DNA of 64,000 bases from Elusimicrobiota bacterium (GTDB lineage: Bacteria; Elusimicrobiota; Elusimicrobia; UBA1565; UBA9628), in the NCBI GenBank assembly GCA_016207605.1, contig JACQPJ010000059.1, positions 1,238 to 65,237 of the forward strand, read 5' to 3'. A program made the position numbers and the translations under genes. The notes below the pieces were generated by a model. That model saw only the letters and a program-made list of their open reading frames with translations. It was not told where the DNA came from and made no database searches. Positions within the stretch are counted from its first letter, which is position 1. Each line of letters starts with the position of its first letter. Below are positions 9,142 to 50,641 of this stretch, piece after piece.

Positions 9142-10449
9142 ATGAAACCGATGAAGACGGAGTGGATCGTCTCCTTGAGCCTGGTCATCCTGGCCGGCCT
9201 GCTGGGACTCTGCGTGTCCGCGGCGCCGCCGATCGTCGTGGGCGGGCCGATCTCGACCGGCGACACGGCCTGGATGCTGACGGCCACGGGCCTGGTCCTG
9301 CTGATGACCCCCGGCCTGTCCTTCTTCTACGGCGGCATGGTCCAGCGCAAGAACGTCATCTCGACCATGCTGCAGAGCTTCATCTCGATGGGCGTGCTGA
9401 GCCTGGTCTGGGTCCTGGTCGGCTTCTCGCTCTCCTTCGGGGAAAGCTGGGGGGGCCTCATCGGCGACCCGCGCACCTATCTCCTCTTCCGCGGCGTCGG
9501 CGGAGCGACGCATCCGCTGCTCGCGCCTACCATCCCCCTGGCGCTCTTCGCCATGTTCCAGCTCAAGTTCGCGATCATCACGCCCGCCCTGATCACGGGC
9601 TCCTTCGCCGAGCGCGTGCGCTTCTCGAGCTACCTGCTGTTCATCACGCTCTTCTCGCTCTTCATCTACTGCCCGCTGGCCCACTGGACCTGGCATCCGG
9701 ACGGCTTCCTGCGCCGCTGGGGGGTCCTGGACTTCGCCGGCGGCACGGTCGTGCACATGTCCGCGGGCTTCGCCGCCCTGGCGGGGGCGATGTACCTGGG
9801 CCGCCGCAAGGTCCACCTCGCCCACGAGTCGCACGCCCCGGCCAACATCCCCTTCGTGCTCCTGGGCACGGGGATGCTCTGGTTCGGCTGGTTCGGCTTC
9901 AACGCGGGCTCGGCCCTGGCCGCCAACGACGTCGCGGTCCTGGCCTTCATCAACACCAACACCGCCTCCGCGGCGGCCATGCTGGCCTGGGTCTTCTTCG
10001 ACGCGGTGCGCGGGCGCCGCCCCTCGGCGCTGGGCGCCTCGGTCGGCGCGGTGGTGGGCCTGGTGGCCATCACGCCCGCCGCCGGCTACGTGCCCGTCGG
10101 GGCGTCGATCGCCATCGGGGCCGTCTCCAGCATCGTCTCGAACCTGGCCGCTCATTGGAAGTCGAAGTCCACGCTGGACGACACGCTGGACGTCTTCCCC
10201 TGCCACGGAGTCGGCGGCATCCTGGGCATGATCGCCACCGGCGCGCTCGCCGACAAGGTGGGTCTGATCCACGGCGACGCGACCGTGTTCCTGCGCCACA
10301 TGGCCGCGATCGCGATCGTGGGCGTGTTCTCCTTCGGCGGCTCCTGGCTCCTCTACAAGATCACGGACATGGCCATCACGCTGCGCGTCCGAGCGGAGCA
10401 GGAGGAGGCCGGCTTGGACTTGAGCCAGCACGCCGAGAGCCTCAGTTGA
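9142..10449 (+). CDS. amtB: ammonium transporter
   Basis: GDTAWML, LMTPGLSFFYGG, DFAGGTVVHMSAG, WFGWFGFNAGS, FPCHG (twin His), E..GLD C-terminus. Confidence 0.97.
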   Translation: MKPMKTEWIVSLSLVILAGLLGLCVSAAPPIVVGGPISTGDTAWMLTATGLVLLMTPGLSFFYGGMVQRKNVISTMLQSFISMGVLSLVWVLVGFSLSFGESWGGLIGDPRTYLLFRGVGGATHPLLAPTIPLALFAMFQLKFAIITPALITGSFAERVRFSSYLLFITLFSLFIYCPLAHWTWHPDGFLRRWGVLDFAGGTVVHMSAGFAALAGAMYLGRRKVHLAHESHAPANIPFVLLGTGMLWFGWFGFNAGSALAANDVAVLAFINTNTASAAAMLAWVFFDAVRGRRPSALGASVGAVVGLVAITPAAGYVPVGASIAIGAVSSIVSNLAAHWKSKSTLDDTLDVFPCHGVGGILGMIATGALADKVGLIHGDATVFLRHMAAIAIVGVFSFGGSWLLYKITDMAITLRVRAEQEEAGLDLSQHAESLS

Positions 10450-10459
10450 CGGCCCCGCG

Positions 10460-11071
10460 ATGACCCTCGGCCAGGCCCTGCGCGCGGGCGCGGCGATGCC
10501 GCTCCTGCTTCTTCTCTCGCTGGCGGTCCTGGCCCAGGCGCTGGAGAGGGCCTTCGCCTACGCCCGCCTGCGCCTGCCCTCGGACCTCTGGGAGCGGATG
10601 CGCCAGCGGCTGGCGTCGGGGGACCGGCTCGGGGCGCTGGCGCTGGCGCGGCGCGACGCGAGCCCGGTGGGCGCGGCGCTGGCCGCGCTCCTGGCCCTGG
10701 AGACCGCGGACGCCGAGCGCCTGGTCGAGGCCTTCCAGGTGCACCGCCAGCGCCTGAGCCTGGCGCTCAACCGGCGCGTCGGCCTCTTCGGCACGGCCAG
10801 CTTCATCGCGCCCCTGGTCGGCCTGCTGGGCACCGTGCTCGGCATCATGCGCGCCTTTCACGATCTCGCCGCGGCCGGCTCCGGCGGCCCCGCCGTCGTG
10901 GCCGCGGGGATCTCCGAAGCCCTGGTCTCGAAGGCCTTCGTCATCGGCGTGGCCGTGGCCGCCGCCTTCCTCTACAACTGCTTCACGCTGGCCTCCCGGC
11001 AGCGGCTGGGCACCGCGGACCTCTGGGTCCTGGAGCTGGCCGAACTCCTAGGCTCCAAGCGCGGCCTTTGA
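10460..11071 (+). CDS. exbB: MotA/TolQ/ExbB proton-channel protein
   Basis: APLVGLLGTVLGIMRAF...VAAGISEAL. Confidence 0.9.
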   Translation: MTLGQALRAGAAMPLLLLLSLAVLAQALERAFAYARLRLPSDLWERMRQRLASGDRLGALALARRDASPVGAALAALLALETADAERLVEAFQVHRQRLSLALNRRVGLFGTASFIAPLVGLLGTVLGIMRAFHDLAAAGSGGPAVVAAGISEALVSKAFVIGVAVAAAFLYNCFTLASRQRLGTADLWVLELAELLGSKRGL

Positions 11072-11523
11072 CGACGACGCCTAACCCCTGGGGCCGGGAG
11101 GAGGACCCCGCCCCCATCGCCGACGTCAACGTCGTGCCGCTGGCCGACGTGTCCCTGGTCCTGCTCATCCTCCTGCTGGTGCTGGCGCCCATGACCTCTC
11201 AGTCCATGCTGCGCGTGCAGTCGTCCGGGGCACGGGCCCCCGCCGCCGGCGAGACCACGTCCGCGCCCGGGGCCGGGGAGCCCGCGCTGATCCTCCTCCT
11301 GTCGCGGGCCGGCTGGGCCGCCGAAGACGGACCCATCGGCGACGACGCCGCCCTGAGGGCCTGGCTGGCGCCGCGGCTGGCGCGGCGCGGCGACAAGCGA
11401 GTCTTTCTCGCTCCGGAGCCGGACGTCCCCAACGGGCGCCTCGTCTCCGGCGTCGAGGCGCTCCAGGACTGCGGCGCCGCCGTCGCCCTGGTCCAGGCGC
11501 GCGACGAGCCGCAGGCCCGCTGA
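11068..11523 (+). CDS. exbD: ExbD/TolR family protein (copy 1)
   Basis: DVNVVPLADVSLVLLILLLV with conserved TM Asp; TTG start overlapping exbB stop. Confidence 0.85.
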   Translation: MTTTPNPWGREEDPAPIADVNVVPLADVSLVLLILLLVLAPMTSQSMLRVQSSGARAPAAGETTSAPGAGEPALILLLSRAGWAAEDGPIGDDAALRAWLAPRLARRGDKRVFLAPEPDVPNGRLVSGVEALQDCGAAVALVQARDEPQAR

Positions 11524-35159: not shown

Positions 35160-36897
35160 CCGCGCCCTGGCCGCGGCCGCGCTGCTGGCGGCCGCGGGAG
35201 CCGCGTCGCCGGCGTCCGCGGACAACCCCGGCACACTGGTCTACGACCTAGCGGCCGACGTGGACACGCTCGACCCCGCCTGGGCCTACGACTCGACCTC
35301 CCTGTTCGTCATCTCCCAGATGTACGAGGGTCTGGTGGCCTTCGACGGCCCGGCCCTCGACCGCTTCCAGCCCCGCCTGGCCTCGGTCGTGCCCACGCGC
35401 GAGAACGGCTTCCTCTCCGCCGACGGCCTGACCTACGCCTTCCCCCTGCGGCGCGGAGTCACGTTTCATGACGGGAGCGCCGTGACGCCGGCGGACGTGA
35501 AGTATTCCCTGATGCGCTTCCTGCTCACCGACCGCGACGGGGGACCCTCCGCCCTCCTGCTCGAGCCCTTGATCGGCCGCCGCCGCGCGGCGGGCCCCGA
35601 CGGCCGCCCCGACCCCGCCGTCTTTGACGCCGCGGACAAGGCCGTCTCGATCGAGGGCGGGGCGCTGGTCCTGCGCCTCAAAAAACCGTTCGCGCCGCTC
35701 TTGTCCGTGCTCGCGGGCTTCGCGCCCGCGATCTCGCGGGCCGACGTCGCCGCCCACGGCGGCTGGGACGGGACCAAGCAGGCCTGGCCCGCGCACTGGA
35801 ACCCGCCCAAGACCGCGGCCGCCCTCCACGGCCGCGCCGACGGCACCGGACCCTTCAAGCTCGCGGCCTGGGACCGGGCCGGCCGGGTCCTCCTGCTGGC
35901 GCGCCACGACGGCTACTGGCGCCGGCCCGCGGCCCTGGCCGCGGCGCGCCTGGAGACGGTCCCGGACGACCGCGAGCGCCGCCGGCGCCTCCTGCGCGGC
36001 GACGCCGACGTCATCCAGGCCGATCCGGTCCTGGCGGCCTCGCTGGCCTCCAGCACGGGCGTGACCGTGGAGGCCAACCTGCCCGCGCTCGAGGTGCCCG
36101 GCGTCGTTCTCTTCAACTTCTCGGCCGCGGCCCAAGACAACCCCTGGCTCGGCTCCGGCCGCCTGGACGGCGACGGCGTGCCGCCGGACTTCTTCGCCGA
36201 CCGAGCCGTGCGCAAGGCCTTCGCGCTCGCCTTCGACGGCGACGCCTACATTCGGGAGAGCTGGCGCGGCCTGGCCCGGCGCGCCGCGGGGCCCATACCG
36301 CCGGGCTTGCCCGGGTACACGCCGACCCTGGCGGGCTGGACGCGCTCGCTCGAGCTTGCCGCGCAGTCCCTGCGGTCGGCGCGCGGGGGGGCGATCTGGG
36401 CTGCGGGCTTCCGCCTGCCCGTCGCCTACGTGGAGGGCCGCGGCGAGAGTCTGGCCGTCTGCCGCCGCCTCCGGGCCGACCTCGCCGCTCTCGACCCGAA
36501 GTTCCGCGTGGAGTGCCGCGGCCTGCCCCAGCCCGCCCTGCTGGGCGAACTGCGCGCCCGCCGCCCGGCCTGCCTGATCCACCGCTGGATCCTGGACTAC
36601 CCGGACTCCCACAACGCCGCGGAGCCCTTCCTCGGCGCCCACGGCGTCTTCGCCGAACCGCTGGGCTACGCCAATCCCAAGGCCAACGCGCTCGTCGAGC
36701 AGGCCGCCGCGGAGTTGGACCCCAACCAGCGCAAGCCGCTCTATGCGGAGCTCCAGGCCCTGGCCGTCTACGACGCCCCCCAGCTCTACACCGTCAACAC
36801 CTACGGCGCGCTGGCCCGCCGCGCGAAGGTGCTCAACTGGACCTACAACCCCGTCCAACCCCACGGAAACTTATATGAGGTCTCGAAACTCCCATGA
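35152..36897 (+). CDS. oppA: peptide ABC transporter substrate-binding protein (family 5), paralog 1
   Basis: Signal peptide; TLDPAWAYD, FHDG...T..DVKYS, GTGPFKL, DYPD. Confidence 0.88.
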   Translation: MRSRALAAAALLAAAGAASPASADNPGTLVYDLAADVDTLDPAWAYDSTSLFVISQMYEGLVAFDGPALDRFQPRLASVVPTRENGFLSADGLTYAFPLRRGVTFHDGSAVTPADVKYSLMRFLLTDRDGGPSALLLEPLIGRRRAAGPDGRPDPAVFDAADKAVSIEGGALVLRLKKPFAPLLSVLAGFAPAISRADVAAHGGWDGTKQAWPAHWNPPKTAAALHGRADGTGPFKLAAWDRAGRVLLLARHDGYWRRPAALAAARLETVPDDRERRRRLLRGDADVIQADPVLAASLASSTGVTVEANLPALEVPGVVLFNFSAAAQDNPWLGSGRLDGDGVPPDFFADRAVRKAFALAFDGDAYIRESWRGLARRAAGPIPPGLPGYTPTLAGWTRSLELAAQSLRSARGGAIWAAGFRLPVAYVEGRGESLAVCRRLRADLAALDPKFRVECRGLPQPALLGELRARRPACLIHRWILDYPDSHNAAEPFLGAHGVFAEPLGYANPKANALVEQAAAELDPNQRKPLYAELQALAVYDAPQLYTVNTYGALARRAKVLNWTYNPVQPHGNLYEVSKLP

Positions 36898-38648
36898 ACT
36901 GCATGCAAAACGCCATCGTCCTGGCCATCCTCGCCGTCCCAGCCGGCGCGGCCGTCAAGAATCCCGACACCTACACCTACCTGACCATCGGCGACGTGGA
37001 CAACCTCGACCCGGCCTGGGCCTACGACACGTCCAGCCAGCATGTCATCCAGAACGTCTACGAGCACCTCCTCTCCTTTCCGGGGACGGGCCTGCGCGCC
37101 GAGGACCTCGCGCCACGGATCGCAACCCGGGTTCCCAGCCGCGCCAACGGCCTGATCTCCGCCGACGGACTGACCTACCGCTTCCCCATCCGGCAGGGCG
37201 TGAAGTTCCACGACGGCTCGGCGCTGACGCCGCAGGACGTGCGCTACTCGCTCCTGCGCTTCATGCTCCTCGATCGCGCCGGCGGCCCGTCGTCGCTGCT
37301 CCTGGAGCCGATCCTGGGCGCCGTCTCCACTCGCCGGAACGGCGCGCTCTCCCCCGACATCGCGGCACAGGCTTTCGCCGCCGTGACCGTCGAAGGGGGC
37401 ACGGTCGTCGTGCGGCTGGATCGCCCGTTCACGCCTTTCCTGTCCGTACTGGCAAGCTTCGGCGCGGTGATGTCCCAATCCTGGTGCACGGCCAACGGAC
37501 AGTGGGACGGCCGCCCTGAAACCGCGGCCCGCTTCAACGACCCGCGCCGCGAGGGCACTTTAGGCGCGCGCATGAACGGCACCGGCCCTTTCCGGCTCGA
37601 CCGCCTGGACCCCGTCCTCAAGCAGATCACGCTGAAACGCCACGACGCATACTGGCGCGGGCCCGCGCGGCTCAAAACCATCCTCGTCAAAACCGTGGAT
37701 GAGTTCGCCACCCGCAAGCTCATGCTCGAGGCTGGGGACGCGGACTCGATTTACGAGCGGCAGAGCAACTTCTCCCAGCTCCAGGGACTGCCGGAGGTGC
37801 GGATCATCGACGACTTGCACGGGTTGGAGCGCATGGAGGTGCTGTTCTTCACCTTCAAGATCAACCCCTCCGCCAACGGCAACATTGGCTCCGGCCGATT
37901 GGACGGCCACGGCATCCCGCCGGATTTCTTCTCCGACAGGGACGCGCGCGAGGCGTTCGCCGCCTCCATCGACTACGAGGGCTTCTCGCGCGACGTCGGC
38001 CGCGGCCGGACCAGCCAGTCGGCCGGCTTCCTCCCGCCGGGGCTGACGGGCTACGATCCGGCGCGGTGCCCGCGGCACCGCTTCGACCTGGCTGAGGCCA
38101 AGACGCGCTTACAAAAGGCCTGGGGCGGCAAGGTGTGGGACAAGGGTTTTCACGCCGCGCTCGTCTTCAACGCGGGCTCGATCGAAGCCCAAGCTCTCTG
38201 CCAGATGCTCAAGAAGAACATCGAGTCGCTCAACCCCAAGTTCCGCCTGGACGTGCGCATGCTGCAGTGGTCGAGCTATGTGGAACAGTCGCGCCAGCGC
38301 AAGCTCCCCATCTTCCTCGGGGCCTGGCAGGCCGATTATCCCGACGCGCACAACTTCGCCTTTCCGTTCCTGCATTCCGCCGGCTACTTCCCGACCAAAC
38401 AGGGCTTCTCCGACCCGGCCGCGGACCGGCTCATCGAGGAGGCCGTCGCGACGCTCGATGAGACCCGGCGCGCCGCGCTCTACGGCCGACTGGAAGACCT
38501 CGCCGCCGAGCAGACGCCCTTCGTCCCCGTCTTCGACGGCACGCGCTACCGCGCCCAGCGCTCCTGGGTGAAGGGTTTCGTTTTCAAGCCCACCTTCCCG
38601 GCGATGCCCTACGCCAGCGACTATTACGACCTATACAAAGCCGAGTAA
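36894..38648 (+). CDS. oppA: peptide ABC transporter substrate-binding protein (family 5), paralog 2
   Basis: NLDPAWAYD, VKFHDG, NGTGPF, WQADYPD. Confidence 0.9.
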   Translation: MNCMQNAIVLAILAVPAGAAVKNPDTYTYLTIGDVDNLDPAWAYDTSSQHVIQNVYEHLLSFPGTGLRAEDLAPRIATRVPSRANGLISADGLTYRFPIRQGVKFHDGSALTPQDVRYSLLRFMLLDRAGGPSSLLLEPILGAVSTRRNGALSPDIAAQAFAAVTVEGGTVVVRLDRPFTPFLSVLASFGAVMSQSWCTANGQWDGRPETAARFNDPRREGTLGARMNGTGPFRLDRLDPVLKQITLKRHDAYWRGPARLKTILVKTVDEFATRKLMLEAGDADSIYERQSNFSQLQGLPEVRIIDDLHGLERMEVLFFTFKINPSANGNIGSGRLDGHGIPPDFFSDRDAREAFAASIDYEGFSRDVGRGRTSQSAGFLPPGLTGYDPARCPRHRFDLAEAKTRLQKAWGGKVWDKGFHAALVFNAGSIEAQALCQMLKKNIESLNPKFRLDVRMLQWSSYVEQSRQRKLPIFLGAWQADYPDAHNFAFPFLHSAGYFPTKQGFSDPAADRLIEEAVATLDETRRAALYGRLEDLAAEQTPFVPVFDGTRYRAQRSWVKGFVFKPTFPAMPYASDYYDLYKAE

Positions 38649-38667
38649 ACTCGGCTAGAATGGGGCC

Positions 38668-40431
38668 ATGAAACGACGATCGCTCCTCCCTGTTGTCGTC
38701 CTAAGCCTATCCTTGGGAGTTGGCGGCGCGGCGGCCGAGACCGTCAAACACCCCGACACCTACACCTACCTAACCATCTCCGACGCCGACAGCCTGGACC
38801 CGGCCTGGTCCTACGACGTGGGCAGTCATCTCGTCGTCCTCAACATCTACGAGCCCCTGTTCCAGTTCGACGGCTCCTCGACCGAACGCCTGCTCCCGCT
38901 CAGCGCGGCCAAGGTCCCCTCGCGCGCCAACGGCCTGATCTCCGCCGACGGGCTCGTCTACACCATCCCCATCCGCCAGGGCGTCAAGTTCCACGACGGC
39001 GCGCCCATGACCGCCGAGGACGCGCGCTATTCCATCCTCCGCTTCATGCTCCAGGATCGGGCCGCCGGCCCCTCGTCTTTGCTCCTGGAGCCCCTGCTTG
39101 GCTATGCGGGCACGCGCGGACCGGATGGCAAGACTCTCCCCAACGTCTGGGAGGACGCCAATCGCGCCGTGACGATCTCGGGCGACAACTTGGTCCTGCG
39201 CCTGCCCAAGCCCTACGCGCCGCTGGTGGGCATACTCGCCTCCTGGGCGCCCGTCCTGTCCAAGGACTGGGCAACCAAGAACGGCGACTGGGACGGAACC
39301 GAGGCGACGTGGGCCAAATACAACAACCCGCAAAAATCCGCCTCGCCCTTCTTCGAGCGCGCCAACGGCACCGGCCCCTTCAAGCTGGAGCGCTGGGACC
39401 GCAAGACCAAGGAGTTCATCCTGACGCGCAACGACGGCTACTGGCGCGCGCCCGCCCAGCTCAAGACCGTGGTGATCAAGGCCGTCGACGAGTTCGGCAC
39501 GCGCAAGCTCATGCTTCAGGCCGGCGACGCCGACAACATCCGCGCCGATTTGCCCATGCTGTCCCAGCTTCAGAACCTGCCGGGCGTGCAGATCGTCGAC
39601 AACCTACCCACGATGAACATGGACCCGACCGTGTTCTTCACCTACAAGATCACCGCGGCGGGAAACTCCTTCCTCGGCTCCGGCCGCTTGGACGGAAGCG
39701 GCATTCCGCCGGACTTCTTCTCCGACGCGGACGTGCGCAAGGGCTTCGCCTACGCCATGGACTACCAGGGCTTCATCGCCGACGTCCAGCGCGGCAAGAG
39801 CACCCAGGCCACGGGCGCCATCCCCAAAAGCCTGCCCGGCCACAACCCCAAGGGACGCCAATACCGCCTGGACTTGGCCAAAGCGAAAGAACACTTCCGG
39901 AAAGCCTGGGGAGGCAAGGTCTGGGAGCAAGGCTTCAAGTTCACGATCGCCTACAACACGGGGAATATCCCGCGTCAGACCCTTTGTCAAATCCTCAAGG
40001 GCAACGTGGAGCGCCTCAACCCCAAGTTCCGGATCGACGTGCGCGCCGTGGACTGGCCGACCTTCCTGGACGCCTACAAGGCCTCCAAACTGCCCATCTT
40101 CGTGATGGGCTGGAACGCGGATTTCCCGGATCCGCACACCTTCGCCTTTCCCATGCTGCACTCACAGGGTGACTACCCGGCCACGCAAAAATTCGGCCGG
40201 CCGGACTTCGACCAGCTCATCGAGCAGGCCAAGTTCGAGTTGGATCCGGCCAAGCGCAAGGCCCTGTACTACAAGCTTCAGGACCTGGCTTTCGATGAGT
40301 GTCCCCAGCTCTACATCAACGACGACGTGCGCTATCGGGCCCAGCGCAGTTGGGTGAAAGGCTGGACCCCCAATCCGGTCTTTCCGGACCCTCCGTGGGG
40401 CAGCTACTACTACCCCATCTCCAAGCGATAG
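38668..40431 (+). CDS. oppA: peptide ABC transporter substrate-binding protein (family 5), paralog 3
   Basis: SLDPAWSYD, VKFHDG, NGTGPFKL, WNADFPD; own TAGAAT box 6 nt before ATG. Confidence 0.92.
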   Translation: MKRRSLLPVVVLSLSLGVGGAAAETVKHPDTYTYLTISDADSLDPAWSYDVGSHLVVLNIYEPLFQFDGSSTERLLPLSAAKVPSRANGLISADGLVYTIPIRQGVKFHDGAPMTAEDARYSILRFMLQDRAAGPSSLLLEPLLGYAGTRGPDGKTLPNVWEDANRAVTISGDNLVLRLPKPYAPLVGILASWAPVLSKDWATKNGDWDGTEATWAKYNNPQKSASPFFERANGTGPFKLERWDRKTKEFILTRNDGYWRAPAQLKTVVIKAVDEFGTRKLMLQAGDADNIRADLPMLSQLQNLPGVQIVDNLPTMNMDPTVFFTYKITAAGNSFLGSGRLDGSGIPPDFFSDADVRKGFAYAMDYQGFIADVQRGKSTQATGAIPKSLPGHNPKGRQYRLDLAKAKEHFRKAWGGKVWEQGFKFTIAYNTGNIPRQTLCQILKGNVERLNPKFRIDVRAVDWPTFLDAYKASKLPIFVMGWNADFPDPHTFAFPMLHSQGDYPATQKFGRPDFDQLIEQAKFELDPAKRKALYYKLQDLAFDECPQLYINDDVRYRAQRSWVKGWTPNPVFPDPPWGSYYYPISKR

Positions 40432-40432
40432 C

Positions 40433-41461
40433 GTGCTGAAATACGTCCTCAAGCGCCTGGCCTTCCTGCCGCTGGTGATGGCGGGGGTCACGCTCCTGCT
40501 GTTCGCCTGCCTGCAGTTCCTCTCGCCGGAGATGCGCGCCTCGCTCTACGTCCGGGACCCGCGCCAGCTCAACCAGATGGAGGCGATCATCGAGAAGTAC
40601 GGCCTGCGCAAGCCCATGCCCGTGCAGTACGGGCGCTGGCTCAAGCAGGTGGCGCGCGGCGACCTGGGCTACTCGGAGACGGCCAAGATGCCCGTGTCCG
40701 AGGCCATCGGCGCCTTCTTCCCCGCGACCTTCGAGCTGACGCTCGTGACCTTCTTCCCGATCCTGGCCGTGGGCGTGGCGCTGGGCGTGCTCTCGGCCGT
40801 GTACAAGGACCGCTTCCTGGACCACGCCTCGCGCTTCATCGCGGTCACGGGCTACTCCCTGCCCAGCTTCGTGCTCGGCCTGGCCCTGCTCATGGTCTTC
40901 TACGGCCGCCTGCACTGGTTCCCGCCGGGGCGCTACGGCCTGGAGACCGACCTTCTCGTGCACGGCGCAGGCTTCCGGCATTGGACCGGCCTGCTCACCC
41001 TGGACTGCCTGCTCAACGGGCGCTGGTCCGCTTTCGCGGACGTCGTCAAGCACTTGGTCCTGCCGGCCTGCACTCTGCTCTACATCTCGGTCGCCCTGCT
41101 CCTGCGCATCACCCGCTCCTCGATGCTCGAGGAGCTCTCCAAGGACTACGTGCGCACGGCCCGCGCCAAGGGCCTGCCCGAGCGCGCCGTCATCTTGAAG
41201 CACGCCCTGCGCAACGCCCTCATCCCCCTGGTCACGCTCTCCAGCCGGCTCTCCATCGGCCTGCTCGGCGGCGACGTCATCACCGAGACCATCTTCGACT
41301 TCCCCGGCATCGGCCGCTGGGGCGTGCAGGCCGCCCAGCAGCTCGACATCCCCGGCGTGCTGGGCTCGACTTTGCTCGCCGCCGGCCTCTTCGTGCTGGC
41401 GAACCTGGTCGCCGACCTGCTCTACGCGGTCGTGGACCCGCGCATCCGCGTGGGGAGCTGA
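40433..41461 (+). CDS. oppB: oligopeptide ABC transporter permease
   Basis: YVLKRL, GDLGYS, PATFEL, EELSKDYVRTARAKGL, HALRNA. Confidence 0.95.
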   Translation: MLKYVLKRLAFLPLVMAGVTLLLFACLQFLSPEMRASLYVRDPRQLNQMEAIIEKYGLRKPMPVQYGRWLKQVARGDLGYSETAKMPVSEAIGAFFPATFELTLVTFFPILAVGVALGVLSAVYKDRFLDHASRFIAVTGYSLPSFVLGLALLMVFYGRLHWFPPGRYGLETDLLVHGAGFRHWTGLLTLDCLLNGRWSAFADVVKHLVLPACTLLYISVALLLRITRSSMLEELSKDYVRTARAKGLPERAVILKHALRNALIPLVTLSSRLSIGLLGGDVITETIFDFPGIGRWGVQAAQQLDIPGVLGSTLLAAGLFVLANLVADLLYAVVDPRIRVGS

Positions 41462-41465
41462 TCCG

Positions 41466-42347
41466 GTGGAGCGCTTGAAGGGAATCTGGAAGGTCCTGAG
41501 GCGCAGGCCCATGTCCCTGCTCGGCTGCGCCCTGGTCGGCTTCTTCCTCCTCGTCGCCGTCGCCGCGCCCCGGCTGGCGCCGCCGCCGGCGGGCAGCCGC
41601 GACCCCTACCTCATGCCGCAGAGCGGCTACAGCCCCGATCCCGTGCTCCCGTCCCAGGAGCACCGGTTCGGGACCACCGAGCAGCAGTACGACCTCTACT
41701 ACGGCATGGTCTGGGGCGCGCGCACCGCCTTCAAGGTCGCGCTCTCGGTCGTGGGCTCCGCGGCGCTGGTGGGCATCCTCCTGGGCGGCGTGGCCGGCTA
41801 CCGCGGGGGCTGGACCGACGAGCTGGTCATGCGCCTGACCGACGTGATCCTGGCCTTCCCCGACATCGTGCTGGCCGTCGTGATCGTGGCGGTCTGGGGC
41901 CCCAGCCTCCTGCACGTCATGGGGGCCGTGGCCTTCACGGCCTGGCCCTCCTACGCCCGCCTCATGCGCGGCGACGTGCTCTCGGTCAAGGAGCGCGACT
42001 TCGTGACCGCGGCGCGCGCGCTGGGCGCCTCGGACGCGCGCATCCTCCTGCGCCACATCATCCCCAACGCCATCTACCCCGTGCTGATCGTGGCTTCGCT
42101 GTCGATGGGCCGGACCGTGATCACGGCCGCGGCGCTCTCTTTCCTCGGTCTGGGCGAGCCCGCGGGCTACGCCGACTGGGGCCAGCTCATCTCGCTCTCG
42201 CGCAACTGGATCATGGGCTCCGCGGGCGACCCCTTCGCCTACTGGCACACCGTCTTCATCCCCGGAGCGGCCATCTTTCTTTTCGTGCTGGGCTGGAACC
42301 TGCTCGGCGACGCCGCCCGCGACATCCTGGATCCGCGGCAGAAATAA
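41466..42347 (+). CDS. oppC: oligopeptide ABC transporter permease
   Basis: HRFGT, RLTDVILAFP, KERDFVTAARALGA, LSFLGLG, WNLLGDAARDILDP. Confidence 0.95.
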   Translation: MERLKGIWKVLRRRPMSLLGCALVGFFLLVAVAAPRLAPPPAGSRDPYLMPQSGYSPDPVLPSQEHRFGTTEQQYDLYYGMVWGARTAFKVALSVVGSAALVGILLGGVAGYRGGWTDELVMRLTDVILAFPDIVLAVVIVAVWGPSLLHVMGAVAFTAWPSYARLMRGDVLSVKERDFVTAARALGASDARILLRHIIPNAIYPVLIVASLSMGRTVITAAALSFLGLGEPAGYADWGQLISLSRNWIMGSAGDPFAYWHTVFIPGAAIFLFVLGWNLLGDAARDILDPRQK

Positions 42348-42438: not shown

Positions 42439-43824
42439 ATGGACGCTCCGCTCTCCGTCCTGGTCGTTGAAGACGACGCGCTGGCGCGCAAGGTCCTAGC
42501 GGCGCACCTGGCCCCGCACCGGGCGGACCCCGCGCCCGACGCCGAGACGGCCCGCCGCAAGCTCGCCTCGGGCCGCTACGACATCGCCTTCATCGACCTT
42601 CAGCTCGACGCAAGCGGCGGCTACGCCGGCCTGGAGCTCATCAAGCCCGCCTCCGCCAAGGGCATCTACACCGTGGTCATGTCCGGCCACGACTCCGAGA
42701 AGTGCGTCGAGCGCGCCTACGAGCTCGGCTGCGACGACTTCTACGCCAAGGGCAACGAGCAGGACAACGTCGGCCGGGTGCTGGCGCGCTTCCTGGAGAG
42801 CCGCGACGGCGCCCGCAGGGAGCGTTTGTTCACCGAGCGCTTCGTCACCGGGGACGCCGACACCCGCGCCGCCGTCCTGGCCGCGCTGGAGTACGCCCCC
42901 TCCGAGCTGCCCATCCTCCTCCTGGGCCCCTCGGGCACCGGCAAGACCAGCCTGGCCCGCGTCATCCACGACCACTCCGGCCGCAAGGGGGGGTTCGTCG
43001 CCATCAACTGCTCGGCCTACACCGAGGACCTATTAGAAGCGGAGCTCTTCGGCTACCGCAAGGGTGCTTTCACCGGCGCCGGCGAGAGCCGCAAGGGCAA
43101 GCTGCTTCTGGCCGACCAGGGGACCCTGTTCCTAGACGAGATCGGCGCCATGAGCCTCAAGATGCAGACCAAGCTGCTCAAGGCCATTGAGGAGCGCTCC
43201 TTCTACCCGCTGGGCTGCGACCGGCCCGAGACCTCGCAGTTCCGCCTCGTCAGCGCGACCCTTGAGGACCTGCACGGCCTGATCAAGGGAGGCAGGCTGC
43301 GCTTCGACTTCTTCCAGCGCATCCACGGCTTCACCCTCAAGCTCAAGCCCCTGGCCCAGCGGCCCTGCGACATCCTCCCTCTCGTCGCCTTCTTCACCAA
43401 GGGGGCGCGGCGGCTGTCGTTCTCGGCCGAGGCCAAGGCCAGGCTGCTGGCCTGCCCCTGGCCGGGCAACATCCGCGAGCTCAAGAAGTTCGTGGACCTC
43501 TTGGAGGCCGGCCACGAGGGCCGCGTGGGCCCCGAAGCCGTCGAGCGGCTCCTGGCGGCCCTGCGCGTGGAGCAGGGCCCCGAGGGCTTTGCGAGCGACG
43601 AGCAGTACCGCTTCGCCCTGAGCCGGGGCCTCAACGAGGCGGTCGACCGCTTCATCGACGTCCTCATCCAGCGGAGTCTATCCGACAACGGGGGCAAGAA
43701 GACCAAGGTCCTCGACGACATGAAGATCTGCACCCGGCTGCTCTACACGTCCCTGGCCCGCAGCGGACGTCCGCCCCAGCCCAAAGAGGCCAAGGATGAG
43801 CGCGAGCTCGAAGAAGTCGCTTGA
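42439..43824 (+). CDS. sigma54-dependent response regulator (NtrC family)
   Basis: REC (VLVVEDD, FIDLQL), AAA+ (GPSGTGKT, GAFTGA, LFLDEIG, WPGNIREL), C-terminal Fis-like HTH. Confidence 0.95.
   Translation: MDAPLSVLVVEDDALARKVLAAHLAPHRADPAPDAETARRKLASGRYDIAFIDLQLDASGGYAGLELIKPASAKGIYTVVMSGHDSEKCVERAYELGCDDFYAKGNEQDNVGRVLARFLESRDGARRERLFTERFVTGDADTRAAVLAALEYAPSELPILLLGPSGTGKTSLARVIHDHSGRKGGFVAINCSAYTEDLLEAELFGYRKGAFTGAGESRKGKLLLADQGTLFLDEIGAMSLKMQTKLLKAIEERSFYPLGCDRPETSQFRLVSATLEDLHGLIKGGRLRFDFFQRIHGFTLKLKPLAQRPCDILPLVAFFTKGARRLSFSAEAKARLLACPWPGNIRELKKFVDLLEAGHEGRVGPEAVERLLAALRVEQGPEGFASDEQYRFALSRGLNEAVDRFIDVLIQRSLSDNGGKKTKVLDDMKICTRLLYTSLARSGRPPQPKEAKDERELEEVA
43724..43809 (+). repeat. 86-bp direct repeat, copy 1 (3' end of the NtrC gene)
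   Basis: Matches 49414-49499 with one mismatch. Confidence 0.95.
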
Positions 43825-44011
43825 GAGCCTGATCCACGACGTCGGCTCGAAGTGCGCTTCCCTCAAGAGCGCCGCCGCTCTGTTGAAATCCGCCTCACCG
43901 CAGGAAACCAAGGAATTGTTGGCGTTGATGGCCCAGCAGGCTAAAAGCCTTGCCGAGACGATTCAGAACTTTAGGATGCAATCAGAACATGAGCGGCGGG
44001 CTTTTCACTAA
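43796..44011 (+). CDS. small protein with a histidine-kinase H-box-like (DHp) motif
   Basis: 71 aa; LIHDVGSKCASLKSAAALL resembles HisKA H-box helices; overlaps NtrC 3' end. Confidence 0.6.
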   Translation: MSASSKKSLESLIHDVGSKCASLKSAAALLKSASPQETKELLALMAQQAKSLAETIQNFRMQSEHERRAFH

Positions 44012-45095
44012 TCATATGGGCACAAACTGGTTGCAGGACTCCATCATTGGCGGCCTTCTCAAATTCACGGGCAGCCAGAAATTTCTGACGGCACAACTTA
44101 ACATAACAAACGCCTGCAATCTAAGTTGCGTCCACTGCTATCACGCACACCATTCCAACGCAGGTGCTTTAGATTTCCAAGGATGGCGAAGCATTCTTGA
44201 TCAGTATGAACGACTTGCAAAGAAGCTCTACTTAAAGCCCTTTTTTGTTATTTGTGGAGGGGAACCAACTATCAGCTCCCTGTTCATACCCATGCTCAAG
44301 GAATTAAACTCAAGATGGCCTGGTGTGAGGGTAGACGTTCTTACTAATGGGACACGACTTGCTAGAGGATTTACGGAGTCCCTTAGACAGTTCAATCTAG
44401 GCATTCAGATTTCTCTGGACGGTCCTGATAGAGAAAGACATGATCTTATTCGCGGGCATGGAAGCTTCGATCAGACTCTCAGCGGGCTCAACAATCTGCA
44501 AGAGGCGGGATTAAACGCATGGTTTCTTGCAACGTTATCCCATCGGACTTCATTGTGGATCGAAGACTTCTTTAAGATGGCAGCAATATCCGAAGTAGAG
44601 GGAATGAATTTTACGCGATTTATTCCTGAGGGAACTGGACGCCTGCTAGAAGAAAGTCATGCGGATCGACCGCTCTCAGGAGTTGATCTGCGGGATACTT
44701 ATGCAGCTATTCTTAAATCTTCCAAGGGAACGGGGGTCGCTACCAATACAAATGGCCCATTGTTTCACCTCATTGATTCCAATCTTGGAGCCAATGGTAA
44801 AGCTGGATTCCAAGGGTTGATTATTGACTATAAGGGAAACTTAAAGTTTTCAAGTCGTGTCGATTTCAAGCTCGGCAATATCTTGGAGGAAGGTTTAGAG
44901 AATTTATTTCTTGGCCATCCTCTCATGCGGGCTCTGCGGAACAGAGAGATTGAGGGATGCGGCACGTGTGTTCACTACGAACATTGCGGAGGCGACAGAA
45001 ATGCCTCTTTTGTCGCTACTGGAAGCTTTCTTAAGAAGGACCCTGGTTGTTGGTTGGACACCGCGCCTCAGGAGGTTGTATGCCGAAAAAAATGA
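43989..45095 (+). CDS. radical SAM protein with SPASM-type C-terminal domain
   Basis: CNLSCVHC (Cx3Cx2C), CGGEP, VLTNG, ISLDG, C-terminal CGTCVHYEHCGGDRNA...DPGCW; start uncertain (43950/43989/44015). Confidence 0.93.
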   Translation: MSGGLFTNHMGTNWLQDSIIGGLLKFTGSQKFLTAQLNITNACNLSCVHCYHAHHSNAGALDFQGWRSILDQYERLAKKLYLKPFFVICGGEPTISSLFIPMLKELNSRWPGVRVDVLTNGTRLARGFTESLRQFNLGIQISLDGPDRERHDLIRGHGSFDQTLSGLNNLQEAGLNAWFLATLSHRTSLWIEDFFKMAAISEVEGMNFTRFIPEGTGRLLEESHADRPLSGVDLRDTYAAILKSSKGTGVATNTNGPLFHLIDSNLGANGKAGFQGLIIDYKGNLKFSSRVDFKLGNILEEGLENLFLGHPLMRALRNREIEGCGTCVHYEHCGGDRNASFVATGSFLKKDPGCWLDTAPQEVVCRKK

Positions 45096-45238
45096 AACGT
45101 TGCGGATTGTTGCTGTTGGCGATGATGCCGATTGCATCAGTTGCGTTTGCGGCCAAGGCAGCGCTTAGTATCGCGCAGCTTGGAAAAAAAGGCGTCACGG
45201 ACATTGAATTATATTCATGTTCGTACGACAGTAAATAA
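45080..45238 (+). CDS. 52-aa secreted peptide (candidate precursor/signal)
   Basis: AGGAGG at 45070-45075; MPKKMKRCGLLLLAMMPIASVAFA|AKAALSIAQLGKKGVTDIELYSCSYDSK; overlaps rSAM stop. Confidence 0.65.
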   Translation: MPKKMKRCGLLLLAMMPIASVAFAAKAALSIAQLGKKGVTDIELYSCSYDSK

Positions 45239-49090: not shown

Positions 49091-49413
49091 GGCTCATGAC
49101 AGATTTTTGTGAACATGGACCCAGCCCCACGGGGAAAACACGCCCATCCATGGGGTGCAGACTTGGATGATTTTCAGCCGCATGTACTCATCGTCCCGGA
49201 AGCCATAGGCCCGGCGAATGAGATTCTTGGCCTTGAGATTGGTCGCTTCGATGTATCCCAACGATACCCGTTTGTCGCAGCAGGCAAGGATGCCGTCGAA
49301 GTGAGAGTCCACCATGCGGGCGAACTTGTGGTAGGGCTTGAGCCGGCTCCACTTGAGCTGATCGACCCAGGCGTTGAAGAAGCGCCACGCGCAGGTCTTG
49401 GATTTGTAGGTCC
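49091..49413 (-). mobile_element. ISL3-family transposase 3' remnant with terminal end
   Basis: W...LKWSRLKPYHKFARMVDSHFDGIL...LGYIEATNLKAKNLIRRAYGFRDDEY is ISL3-type C-terminus; GGCTC end at 49091; 5' part replaced by the direct repeat. Confidence 0.82.
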
Positions 49414-49499
49414 AGATCTGCACCCGGCTGCTCTACACGTCCCTGTCCCGCAGCGGACGTCCGCCCCAGCCCAAAGAGGCCAAGGATGAGCGCGAGCTC
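49414..49499 (+). repeat. 86-bp direct repeat, copy 2
   Basis: Matches 43724-43809 with one mismatch; followed by truncated mini-gene start (MSASSRE then stops). Confidence 0.95.
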
Positions 49500-50543: not shown

Positions 50544-50641
50544 GCGCCAGATGAAGGACTTCGCGGGCTAAACATGAGGGGGGACCAGGAATCCTTGCGG
50601 ATTTGCGAGTTGGCGTCTTGGCGTCTCGGCGGTTCATCGTT

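Follow-up and report, generated by a model that had tools for sequence, protein, structure and literature searches.

What does a very short gene do when it begins inside the 3' end of a radical S-adenosylmethionine (SAM) enzyme gene, and does that enzyme act on its product? The question is raised by a stretch of 64,000 nucleotides from an Elusimicrobiota bacterium (contig JACQPJ010000059.1; hereafter the window), in which a 52-amino-acid open reading frame (ORF) follows such an enzyme. Our analysis suggests that the encoded peptide is probably a dedicated fourth member of a conserved unit that further comprises the radical SAM enzyme, a membrane-anchored OppA-like solute-binding protein (SBP) and a hybrid histidine kinase, and that this unit probably represents a peptide-signalling system that has not been described before. 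In the window, and in part of the related loci, a sigma-54 activator and a mini-protein resembling the dimerisation and histidine phosphotransfer (DHp) region of kinases are attached to this unit. Stated loosely, the favoured reading is one in which the radical SAM enzyme modifies the peptide, the Sec pathway exports it and the SBP and kinase sense it. We infer the chemistry and the sensing, and place the probability of the chain as a whole at about 0.42.

By itself the ORF is not significant (102 ORFs of at least 40 amino acids occur in the surrounding 14 kb), and it is accepted as a gene because it is conserved at related radical SAM loci. An earlier note on this DNA had described its product, MPKKMKRCGLLLLAMMPIASVAFAAKAALSIAQLGKKGVTDIELYSCSYDSK, as preceded by a strong AGGAGG and as carrying a basic N-terminus, a hydrophobic core and an AFA/A cleavage site (the slash marks the cut here and below) that leaves a 28-residue mature part; all of these are present, as is the overlap with the radical SAM reading frame, which ends in TGA at 45093-45095 and shares 16 nucleotides with the peptide gene. 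A Shine-Dalgarno-like motif (GGAGG, GAGG or GGGG) likewise precedes the ATG in about 16 of 19 homologous small ORFs. On these comparisons the ORF is almost certainly a real gene, translated and coupled to the radical SAM gene, and it very probably encodes a small exported product.

The loci compared were obtained in part by a contig scan based on an alignment of the radical SAM protein; a scan with the single radical SAM sequence found nothing, and a metagenome scan added only four true relatives. A total of 423 proteins are related to the radical SAM enzyme at E <= 1e-3, many with 50-73% identity, and context look-ups and genome scans yielded about 30 distinct loci in Elusimicrobiota and Bdellovibrionota, together with one short Bacteroidia contig that ends inside the radical SAM gene. 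Where the sequence suffices, the usual order is radical SAM gene, a gap of 200-500 nucleotides, SBP_bac_5 gene and kinase gene, and in every case a small ORF whose N-terminus resembles a signal lies in the gap; the four genes are found together at every locus long enough to show them. The earlier note had proposed a true gene tied to the enzyme and had looked to the homologous loci for a comparable ORF: one is present at every locus with enough sequence, and the co-occurrence across loci upholds the tie. The peptide gene adjoins the radical SAM gene at nearly every locus, and the two overlap or lie no more than 10 nucleotides apart in five of the loci read: the window, L001, L002, L185 and, according to gene calls, a P0005 contig. 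The peptide gene thereby displays the hallmark of precursors of ribosomally synthesised and post-translationally modified peptides (RiPPs), namely a short gene co-located with its putative maturase across genomes.

The association also holds in the reverse direction, as four members of the peptide family found by profile alone all adjoin cassette genes: three lie beside a radical SAM gene, two of these also beside SBP_bac_5, and the fourth lies beside SBP_bac_5 and a kinase, behind a cut-off upstream gene of no assigned identity. Further, a second cassette in one Elusimicrobiales genome (L191, G413:C41:338000-342500, minus strand), encoding the peptide MVKKIILIALALLPISSVAFAAQSALTSNQEQVSGGVDTASDVSWSNGNNDNK, has the order peptide, SBP, radical SAM, kinase, and is the only case in which the SBP gene intervenes between the peptide and radical SAM genes. 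Because this permuted cassette keeps all four genes, they appear to stay together under changed order. The first cassette in the same genome lies directly 3' of NifU and NifS genes.

The peptide family was delineated with a profile built from ten small ORFs and searched against 1.84 billion proteins at a cutoff of E <= 1e-3, which returned 57 cluster representatives; a word-indexed protein search with the 52-residue peptide retrieved a single relative besides the peptide of the window itself. Neither the window peptide nor the family representatives match Pfam. None of 11 peptides tested against NCBIfam 20.0 reaches a curated cutoff, 10 of them having no hit at all, and the hits of P0144, all to unrelated models, are at chance level (E 0.006-0.11). 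The N-terminal 35-55 residues of P0124, P0144 and P0175 resemble Pfam DUF6520 below threshold (E 0.01-0.25), which is probably signal-peptide likeness only.

The best-conserved part of the family is the signal region together with the first mature residues, which follow the pattern [KR][KR]..L..L...P[ILV].[SA][VI][SA]FA/A..AL. Judged by rules alone, the window peptide has the makings of a Sec signal cleaved by signal peptidase (SPase) I: an n-region with four positive charges (K3, K4, K6 and R7), a 14-residue h-region (C8-V21) averaging 2.21 on the Kyte-Doolittle scale, and, in A22-F23-A24/A25, a small residue at both -3 and -1, so that a mature peptide of 28 residues is left. The same features bear out the claim of the earlier note that a Sec-type signal stands in place of a classical RiPP leader and, as it also held, no dedicated ABC exporter or protease is found in the cassette, in the window or in its relatives. 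Residues 1-24 would thus act as the signal, with cleavage after AFA very likely. A Tat signal was rejected, as the window has K6-R7 and lacks the invariant twin arginine of S/T-R-R-x-F-L-K, and the family positions -19 and -18 are a mixture of lysine and arginine (27/27 and 20/28), unlike the Tat pair; a lipoprotein (SPase II) signal was rejected as well, with alanine rather than a lipobox cysteine at +1.

Position counts over 58 sequences, for features that the profile itself partly selects, give Lys/Arg at -19 and -18, L-15 in 57/57, L-12 in 55/57, P-8 in 57/58, Ser/Ala at -3 in 56/58, and F-2 and A-1 each in 54/58, and the conservation continues past the cleavage site with A+1 in 57/58 and A+4 and L+5 each in 50/58. 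The same Leu, Leu, Pro pattern is seen in ORFs found through the radical SAM gene alone (L007-L018). This degree of conservation is far above what a generic Sec signal needs, and the signal region may carry a recognition element laid over the Sec signal, with L-15, L-12, P-8, F-2, A-1, A+1, A+4 and L+5 as its putative family-specific surface.

After +5 the sequences diverge, and mature lengths range from 25 to about 100 amino acids. The window's own subfamily of 26 sequences can, however, be aligned without gaps over 27 mature positions, and displays the pattern A-[KQR]-S-A-L-x-[VI]-A-Q-[IL], D17, L20, five variable residues and [ED/L]26-S27; in the window peptide the conserved positions are A+1, A+4, L+5, Q9, I/L10, D17, L20, D/E26 and S27. 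Position 27 (S51 of the window precursor) is serine in 24 of the 26 members at a fixed, ungapped place, one exception being a shift by a one-residue insertion and the other a cysteine, while position 26 is Glu or Asp in 17 of 26. The earlier note had placed the modification on Tyr and Cys of the YSCSYDSK tail. Those residues are not the conserved ones, and the proposal thereby fails the condition that the note itself had set, conservation of Y and C: Y45, S46, C47, S48 and Y49 (mature positions 21-25) form a variable linker, the tail is not conserved as such, and of 70 family members only 8 have a cysteine anywhere in the mature region and only 5 a tyrosine among the last ten residues. Its choice of the tail as the modified region may still hold, with D50-S51 conserved there. 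In the member with the cysteine (P0137, L192:1101-1283), which reads KNDVFK-C-QTG around this position, the adjoining radical SAM gene is 61% identical.

Across the family as a whole the tails are glycine-rich (22% versus 7% elsewhere), and a Gibbs motif search of the mature regions reached 6.75 bits against 4.9-5.6 in shuffles. A single family-wide core motif was rejected, as the Gibbs output mixed the VAQIR block with glycine-rich tails; a family-wide C-terminal serine was likewise set aside as not distinguishable from composition, and the fixed serine is claimed for the 26-member subfamily only.

The enzyme belongs to the radical SAM superfamily, with a PF04055 match at E 9.3e-21 and the motif C43-x3-C47-x2-C50 invariant in 25 homologues; C324, C327, C333 and C354 are also invariant. 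Its AlphaFold2 model (pLDDT 86) has a barrel-like core, and the top Foldseek match is the anaerobic sulfatase-maturating enzyme (anSME) anSMEcpe (4k37, TM 0.69), followed by SuiB, SkfB, ChlB, TigE and CteB, all of them peptide- or protein-modifying radical SAM enzymes. By sequence, anSME is the only full-length match in the PDB. Enzymes of this type oxidise serine or cysteine in sulfatases that carry export signals, and the interchange of Ser and Cys among their substrates is known, with which the cysteine of P0137 may be compared. An N-terminal RiPP recognition element (RRE) was seen neither in the model nor by Foldseek. The C-terminal region scores 14.6 bits against SPASM (PF13186, defined by a seven-cysteine motif that binds two auxiliary clusters), below the 21.5-bit cutoff, and thus is not a SPASM domain by that measure. 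When it is aligned to anSMEcpe, no cysteine stands opposite the three upstream ones of the SPASM region, and the fourth cysteine of Cx2Cx5Cx3C (C330) is replaced. From the anSME structure we take the four missing cysteines to be the ligands of auxiliary cluster I and the four retained ones to hold cluster II. The enzyme is not an anSME by TIGR03942 (50.3 bits versus a cutoff of 349.45), and it reaches no NCBIfam equivalog, the best being ACGX with 112 bits against a 400-bit cutoff; membership of the mycofactocin, ACGX, GeoRSP and SCIFF types in NCBIfam 20.0 was accordingly rejected.

On the receptor side, the SBP model (pLDDT 87) has an N-terminal helix over residues 2-38 and a fold of the Cluster C or family-5 type (TM 0.77-0.80 to MppA, OppA and DppA by Foldseek). 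All of its homologues have a hydrophobic N-terminal anchor, with neither a cleavable signal nor a lipobox, and its PDB relatives include the pheromone binder PrgZ and OppA with a Phr-derived peptide. No permease or ATPase gene is found in the cassette, either in the window or in the relatives. The SBP and kinase genes overlap, stop to start (ATGA), and the kinase follows the SBP gene at all sufficiently long loci except the permuted one, where the radical SAM gene lies between them. In the window, Pfam and NCBIfam scans delineate a cassette of six co-oriented genes, and L193 has the same order of activator, mini-protein (76 amino acids there), radical SAM, peptide, SBP and kinase. A sigma-54 activator is adjacent at many loci, that of the window being 55-58% identical to the regulators beside related cassettes. 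ORFs of 64-76 amino acids occupy the position of the mini-protein in L001, L002 and L193, and in L179 a tblastn match to the window mini-protein adjoins the activator gene. The L193 version (L193:2662-2892), FYHDIGTARTIV, and that of the window, LIHDVGSKCASL, have the HDxG motif in common (LIHDVGSK in one, FYHDIGTA in the other), and these proteins of 71-76 residues may be free-standing DHp-like phosphotransfer proteins acting between the hybrid kinase and the activator.

Between the peptide and SBP genes lies a GC-rich hairpin with a folding energy of -46.1 kcal/mol (z -4.4), and a strong GC-rich stem of unrelated sequence stands at the same position in eight of eight loci (z -2.0 to -5.0). 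A canonical terminator was rejected for the window, where the hairpin lacks a T-run. It could be a partial terminator or a stabiliser favouring transcripts of the radical SAM and peptide genes, which would then outnumber those of the receptor genes.

Taken together, the favoured chain of events would begin in the cytoplasm, where the radical SAM enzyme would act on the precursor before export, a step we regard as somewhat better than an even bet. The best candidate site is the fixed Asp/Glu-Ser pair (D50-S51) rather than Tyr or Cys, and candidate chemistries are serine oxidation as in formylglycine formation, epimerisation or a cross-link. After export the mature peptide, with its conserved new N-terminus AKxAL, would be bound in the periplasm by the anchored SBP, which would then control the kinase, and the signal would pass through the mini-protein to the sigma-54 activator; this sensing half of the chain is put forward tentatively, at slightly less than even odds. 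Several observations weigh against the chain. Cys, Tyr and Trp, the residues that radical SAM cross-links usually join, are not conserved in the mature region; outside the subfamily the C-terminal serine (61 of 70) is close to what composition predicts (about 57 of 70); and the anSME substrate motif C/S-x-P/A-x-R is absent, the window tail being D-S-K-stop. The loss of auxiliary cluster I argues against simple anSME-like oxidation and makes it uncertain, with epimerisation or another reaction equally conceivable. Additionally, a 28-residue peptide crosses the outer membrane poorly, which makes cell-to-cell signalling doubtful. The residues after the conserved serine vary across the family, and no sulfatase gene is found in the cassette.

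In one alternative the peptide is a periplasmic accessory of the SBP-kinase sensor, for example a CpxP-like inhibitor or co-receptor, and not a substrate of the enzyme, which makes or modifies something else, such as a small-molecule ligand, the SBP or the kinase. The wide variation of the mature regions, which reach about 100 residues and look helical in Bdellovibrionota, fits such a role, as do the want of conserved Cys, Tyr and Trp, an enzyme that has no RRE domain, and a linkage of the peptide to the SBP and kinase genes as strict as that to the radical SAM gene. However, the overlap or close abutment of the peptide and radical SAM genes in five of the loci read, the peptide- or protein-modifying activity of all the nearest structural relatives of the enzyme, and an N-terminal motif that resembles a recognition element for a cytoplasmic partner are harder to reconcile with it, and we consider it unlikely.

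A different reading takes its cue from Enterococcus, where the OppA-like PrgZ recognises sex pheromones and inhibitor peptides of the iCF10 type: the signal peptide, or its fragment PIASVAFA, would be the signal released on cleavage and the mature part a carrier. It would explain why the signal region is the best conserved part family-wide while the mature parts diverge, and it agrees with an SBP related to PrgZ and OppA and with the setting of L001 and L002 next to genes for type IV secretion (and, in L001, an integrase), probably on conjugative elements. Yet it leaves the radical SAM enzyme without a role, the mature part of the subfamily is also well conserved over its 27 positions, and the conservation crosses the cleavage site (A+1, A+4 and L+5), which better fits a recognition element or the N-terminus of a mature product; this reading is improbable. 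We hold an equally low opinion of the proposal of an outward-acting RiPP product, antimicrobial or other, or of a periplasmic metallophore comparable to the bufferins, with the SBP and kinase serving induction or self-protection. Bufferins do provide a precedent for RiPPs with a Sec signal (PMC11626156), SBP_bac_5 relatives include the nickel or metallophore binders NikA and CntA, and the cassette is sporadic and island-borne (0 of 24 same-genus and 9 of 401 phylum genomes); however, the mature region holds no conserved His or Cys metal ligands, and the conserved gene set of the cassette includes none for immunity, export or the outer membrane. Least tenable, with next to no probability, is that the ORF is a chance reading frame, for short ORFs are indeed plentiful, but this reading is refuted by in-frame conservation across loci with radical SAM identities of 39-73% and GC contents of 45-60%, and by the N-terminal motif and ribosome-binding site common to them.

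Base composition adds a further dimension to the favoured reading of a modified and sensed peptide. GC content falls from 65-72% to 46-50% between about 43900 and 50500, with the break inside the mini-gene near 43900: the activator gene has a GC of 69% and a third-codon-position GC (GC3) of 94%, as against a GC3 of about 45-52% in the genes from radical SAM to kinase. Because the block from radical SAM to kinase has this foreign base composition, sender and receptor genes would have arrived or been swapped together, and the sharp break inside the mini-gene points to an exchangeable sender-receptor module. The block appears accessory, since the radical SAM gene is absent from 24 of 24 same-genus genomes and present in only 9 of 401 genomes of the phylum. 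Most of it is bracketed by two copies of an 86-nucleotide direct repeat that are 99% identical; the contig comes from a 75%-complete metagenome-assembled genome, and the repeat-bounded block is either a true insertion or an assembly loop. The fullest version of the argument is a new signalling class in bacteria with an outer membrane, in which the Sec signal doubles as the leader for a radical SAM enzyme that has neither an RRE nor auxiliary cluster I, the Asp/Glu-Ser pair is altered, a membrane-anchored OppA-like receptor feeds a sigma-54 activator by way of the hybrid kinase and the free-standing DHp mini-protein, and the sender-receptor block of radical SAM, peptide, SBP and kinase is exchangeable by recombination as a specificity module; in this complete form we think it quite unlikely.

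Several features of the surroundings may be recorded beside these. The repeat begins exactly with AGATCT and ends exactly with GAGCTC, and its second copy carries an aborted mini-gene start (MSASSRE, then a stop) and abuts a transposase fragment (49094-49423, minus strand), presumably ISL3-like, as recognised from its translation rather than by a family search. The segment 49538-50543 (GC 46-51%) holds a 194-residue ORF without a family hit and a carboxymuconolactone-decarboxylase-family gene, with a return to high GC at 50603. Two tandem SBP_bac_5-like and two Opp/Dpp-type permease-like genes of host-like high GC (36894-42347), assigned by reading their translations, immediately precede the sigma-54 activator. 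Among the relatives, L001 and L002, the closest ones, each carry a gene with only Sigma54_DBD. Their cassettes adjoin TraC and TrbC genes of type IV secretion, among which genes for single-domain receivers are interspersed, and L001 has an integrase gene as well (L001:1-2003 and 10167-11141; L002:1-1831); integrative conjugative elements are the probable carriers of both. In four related cassettes a purine riboswitch aptamer of the 2dG-II type (RF03165; 71-83 bits, gathering score 60) stands directly upstream of the radical SAM gene. The Rfam scan of the window found no riboswitch and only chance hits to miRNA models, on the hairpin; the window and L193 lack the aptamer because the radical SAM gene there abuts the mini-gene. 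Upstream of the radical SAM genes no consistent sigma-54 promoter (TGGCAC-N5-TTGC) was found, and none in the window; autoregulation through such a promoter was set aside, isolated good matches in L001, L089 and L183 being insufficient.

Table 1. Positions of the features discussed, in window coordinates unless a locus is named.
Feature	Position	Strand	Basis or remark
Sigma-54-dependent response regulator (REC and AAA+ activator)	42439..43824	+	Pfam Response_reg and Sigma54_activat, E 2.4e-52
86-nucleotide direct repeat, copy 1 (regulator 3' end and mini-gene start)	43724..43809	.	
71-residue mini-protein, H-box-like HDxG motif, candidate phosphotransfer	43796..44011	+	weak HisKA, E 0.0065
Radical SAM enzyme, 368 residues, truncated SPASM-like C-terminal domain, without RRE	43989..45095	+	PF04055
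Shine-Dalgarno AGGAGG	45070..45075	+	4 nucleotides 5' of the ATG
52-residue precursor gene	45080..45238	+	ATG 45080, TAA 45236-45238
Residues 1-24, predicted Sec-type signal peptide with family-specific motif	45080..45151	+	
Predicted 28-residue mature peptide, AKAALSIAQLGKKGVTDIELYSCSYDSK	45152..45235	+	
Codons D50-S51, sole conserved tail residues, candidate modification site	45227..45232	+	
GC-rich hairpin, 21-nucleotide arms, 10-nucleotide loop	45262..45313	+	between peptide and SBP genes
Membrane-anchored family-5 SBP, 523 residues	45354..46925	+	PF00496, E 1.8e-26
Hybrid sensor histidine kinase, 687 residues	46922..48985	+	HATPase_c E 1.3e-23; weak HisKA, REC
86-nucleotide direct repeat, copy 2 (99% identical, one mismatch)	49414..49499	.	
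2dG-II aptamer	L001:4878-4948; L002:4709-4779; L006:961-1031; L019:4856-4926		Rfam scan

If the favoured reading is true, the enzyme would be, after the multinuclear non-heme iron-dependent oxidative enzymes (MNIOs) of the bufferins, a second class of enzymes whose RiPP-like products leave by the general Sec pathway, the precursor would offer a natural case of a signal peptide doubling as a maturase leader, and the enzyme itself would be of the SPASM type with auxiliary cluster II only, acting on serine. It would further point to a peptide-based sensing circuit, carried in part by mobile elements, in two little-studied phyla, the Elusimicrobiota and the Bdellovibrionota, the latter being predators. 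The corrected target, S51 instead of Tyr or Cys, defines concrete mutants together with the leader motif.

In comparison with known systems, the anSMEs (anSMEcpe, PDB 4K36-4K39; AtsB) come closest on the side of the enzyme. They are its best match by structure (TM 0.69) and its only full-length PDB match by sequence, they too have no RRE domain, and the candidate serine of the peptide is a cysteine in one family member; their substrates carry an export signal and are modified before export. They differ in that the window enzyme is without the four cysteines of auxiliary cluster I and scores 50 bits against the 349 of TIGR03942, and in that its partner is a 28-residue peptide linked to a sensor, with no C/S-x-P/A-x-R motif and no sulfatase. 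The streptide (StrA/StrB-SuiB) and epipeptide (EpeX/EpeE, also known as YydF/YydG) systems likewise place a peptide beside a radical SAM/SPASM-type maturase and are tied to regulation, and SuiB is among the top structural matches of the window enzyme. However, they have classical leaders, an RRE (in SuiB), dedicated proteases and ABC exporters, and their Lys-Trp cross-link and epimerisation sites are not conserved here.

On the side of the receptor, in LuxP-LuxQ-LuxU-LuxO of Vibrio and in CBP-ChiS the hybrid histidine kinase answers to a periplasmic SBP that has no transporter of its own, and the Lux relay continues through a small histidine-phosphotransfer protein to a sigma-54 activator. Small molecules that the operon does not encode serve there as ligands, as opposed to the gene-encoded peptide and radical SAM enzyme found here, and the SBP of the window cassette is membrane-anchored. 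The cCF10/iCF10-PrgZ system of Enterococcus and the Phr-Opp system of Bacillus also have small precursors with signal peptides and a binder of the OppA family, and occur on conjugative elements, as L001 and L002 probably do. These are, however, systems of monoderm hosts, in which unmodified peptides are imported to cytoplasmic receptors, with neither a radical SAM enzyme nor a kinase.

RiPP precursors with a Sec signal are described as rare, the bufferins being the worked example, with BufA precursors, the MNIO BufB and the DUF2063 partner BufC (PMC11626156). The earlier note had called such an arrangement unusual, which stands as far as rarity is concerned, though with the bufferins it is not without precedent (PMC11626156). 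Besides the Sec-signal precursor, the two have in common a product placed in the periplasm, where bufferins stay (PMC11626156); but there the enzyme is an MNIO that turns cysteine into thiooxazole for copper binding (PMC11626156), no SBP or kinase takes part, and the peptide studied here has no conserved cysteine. A bufferin precursor (DUF2282 or BUF_6/12Cys) was itself rejected, there being no Pfam hit, cysteine in only 8 of 70 members and no MNIO (DUF692) gene in the cassette. No paper in the searched literature joins a radical SAM enzyme, a signal-peptide precursor, an SBP and a kinase: peptides modified by radical SAM enzymes and sensors made of an SBP and a kinase are each well known, and it is their joining through a Sec-exported, gene-encoded peptide that appears to be new.

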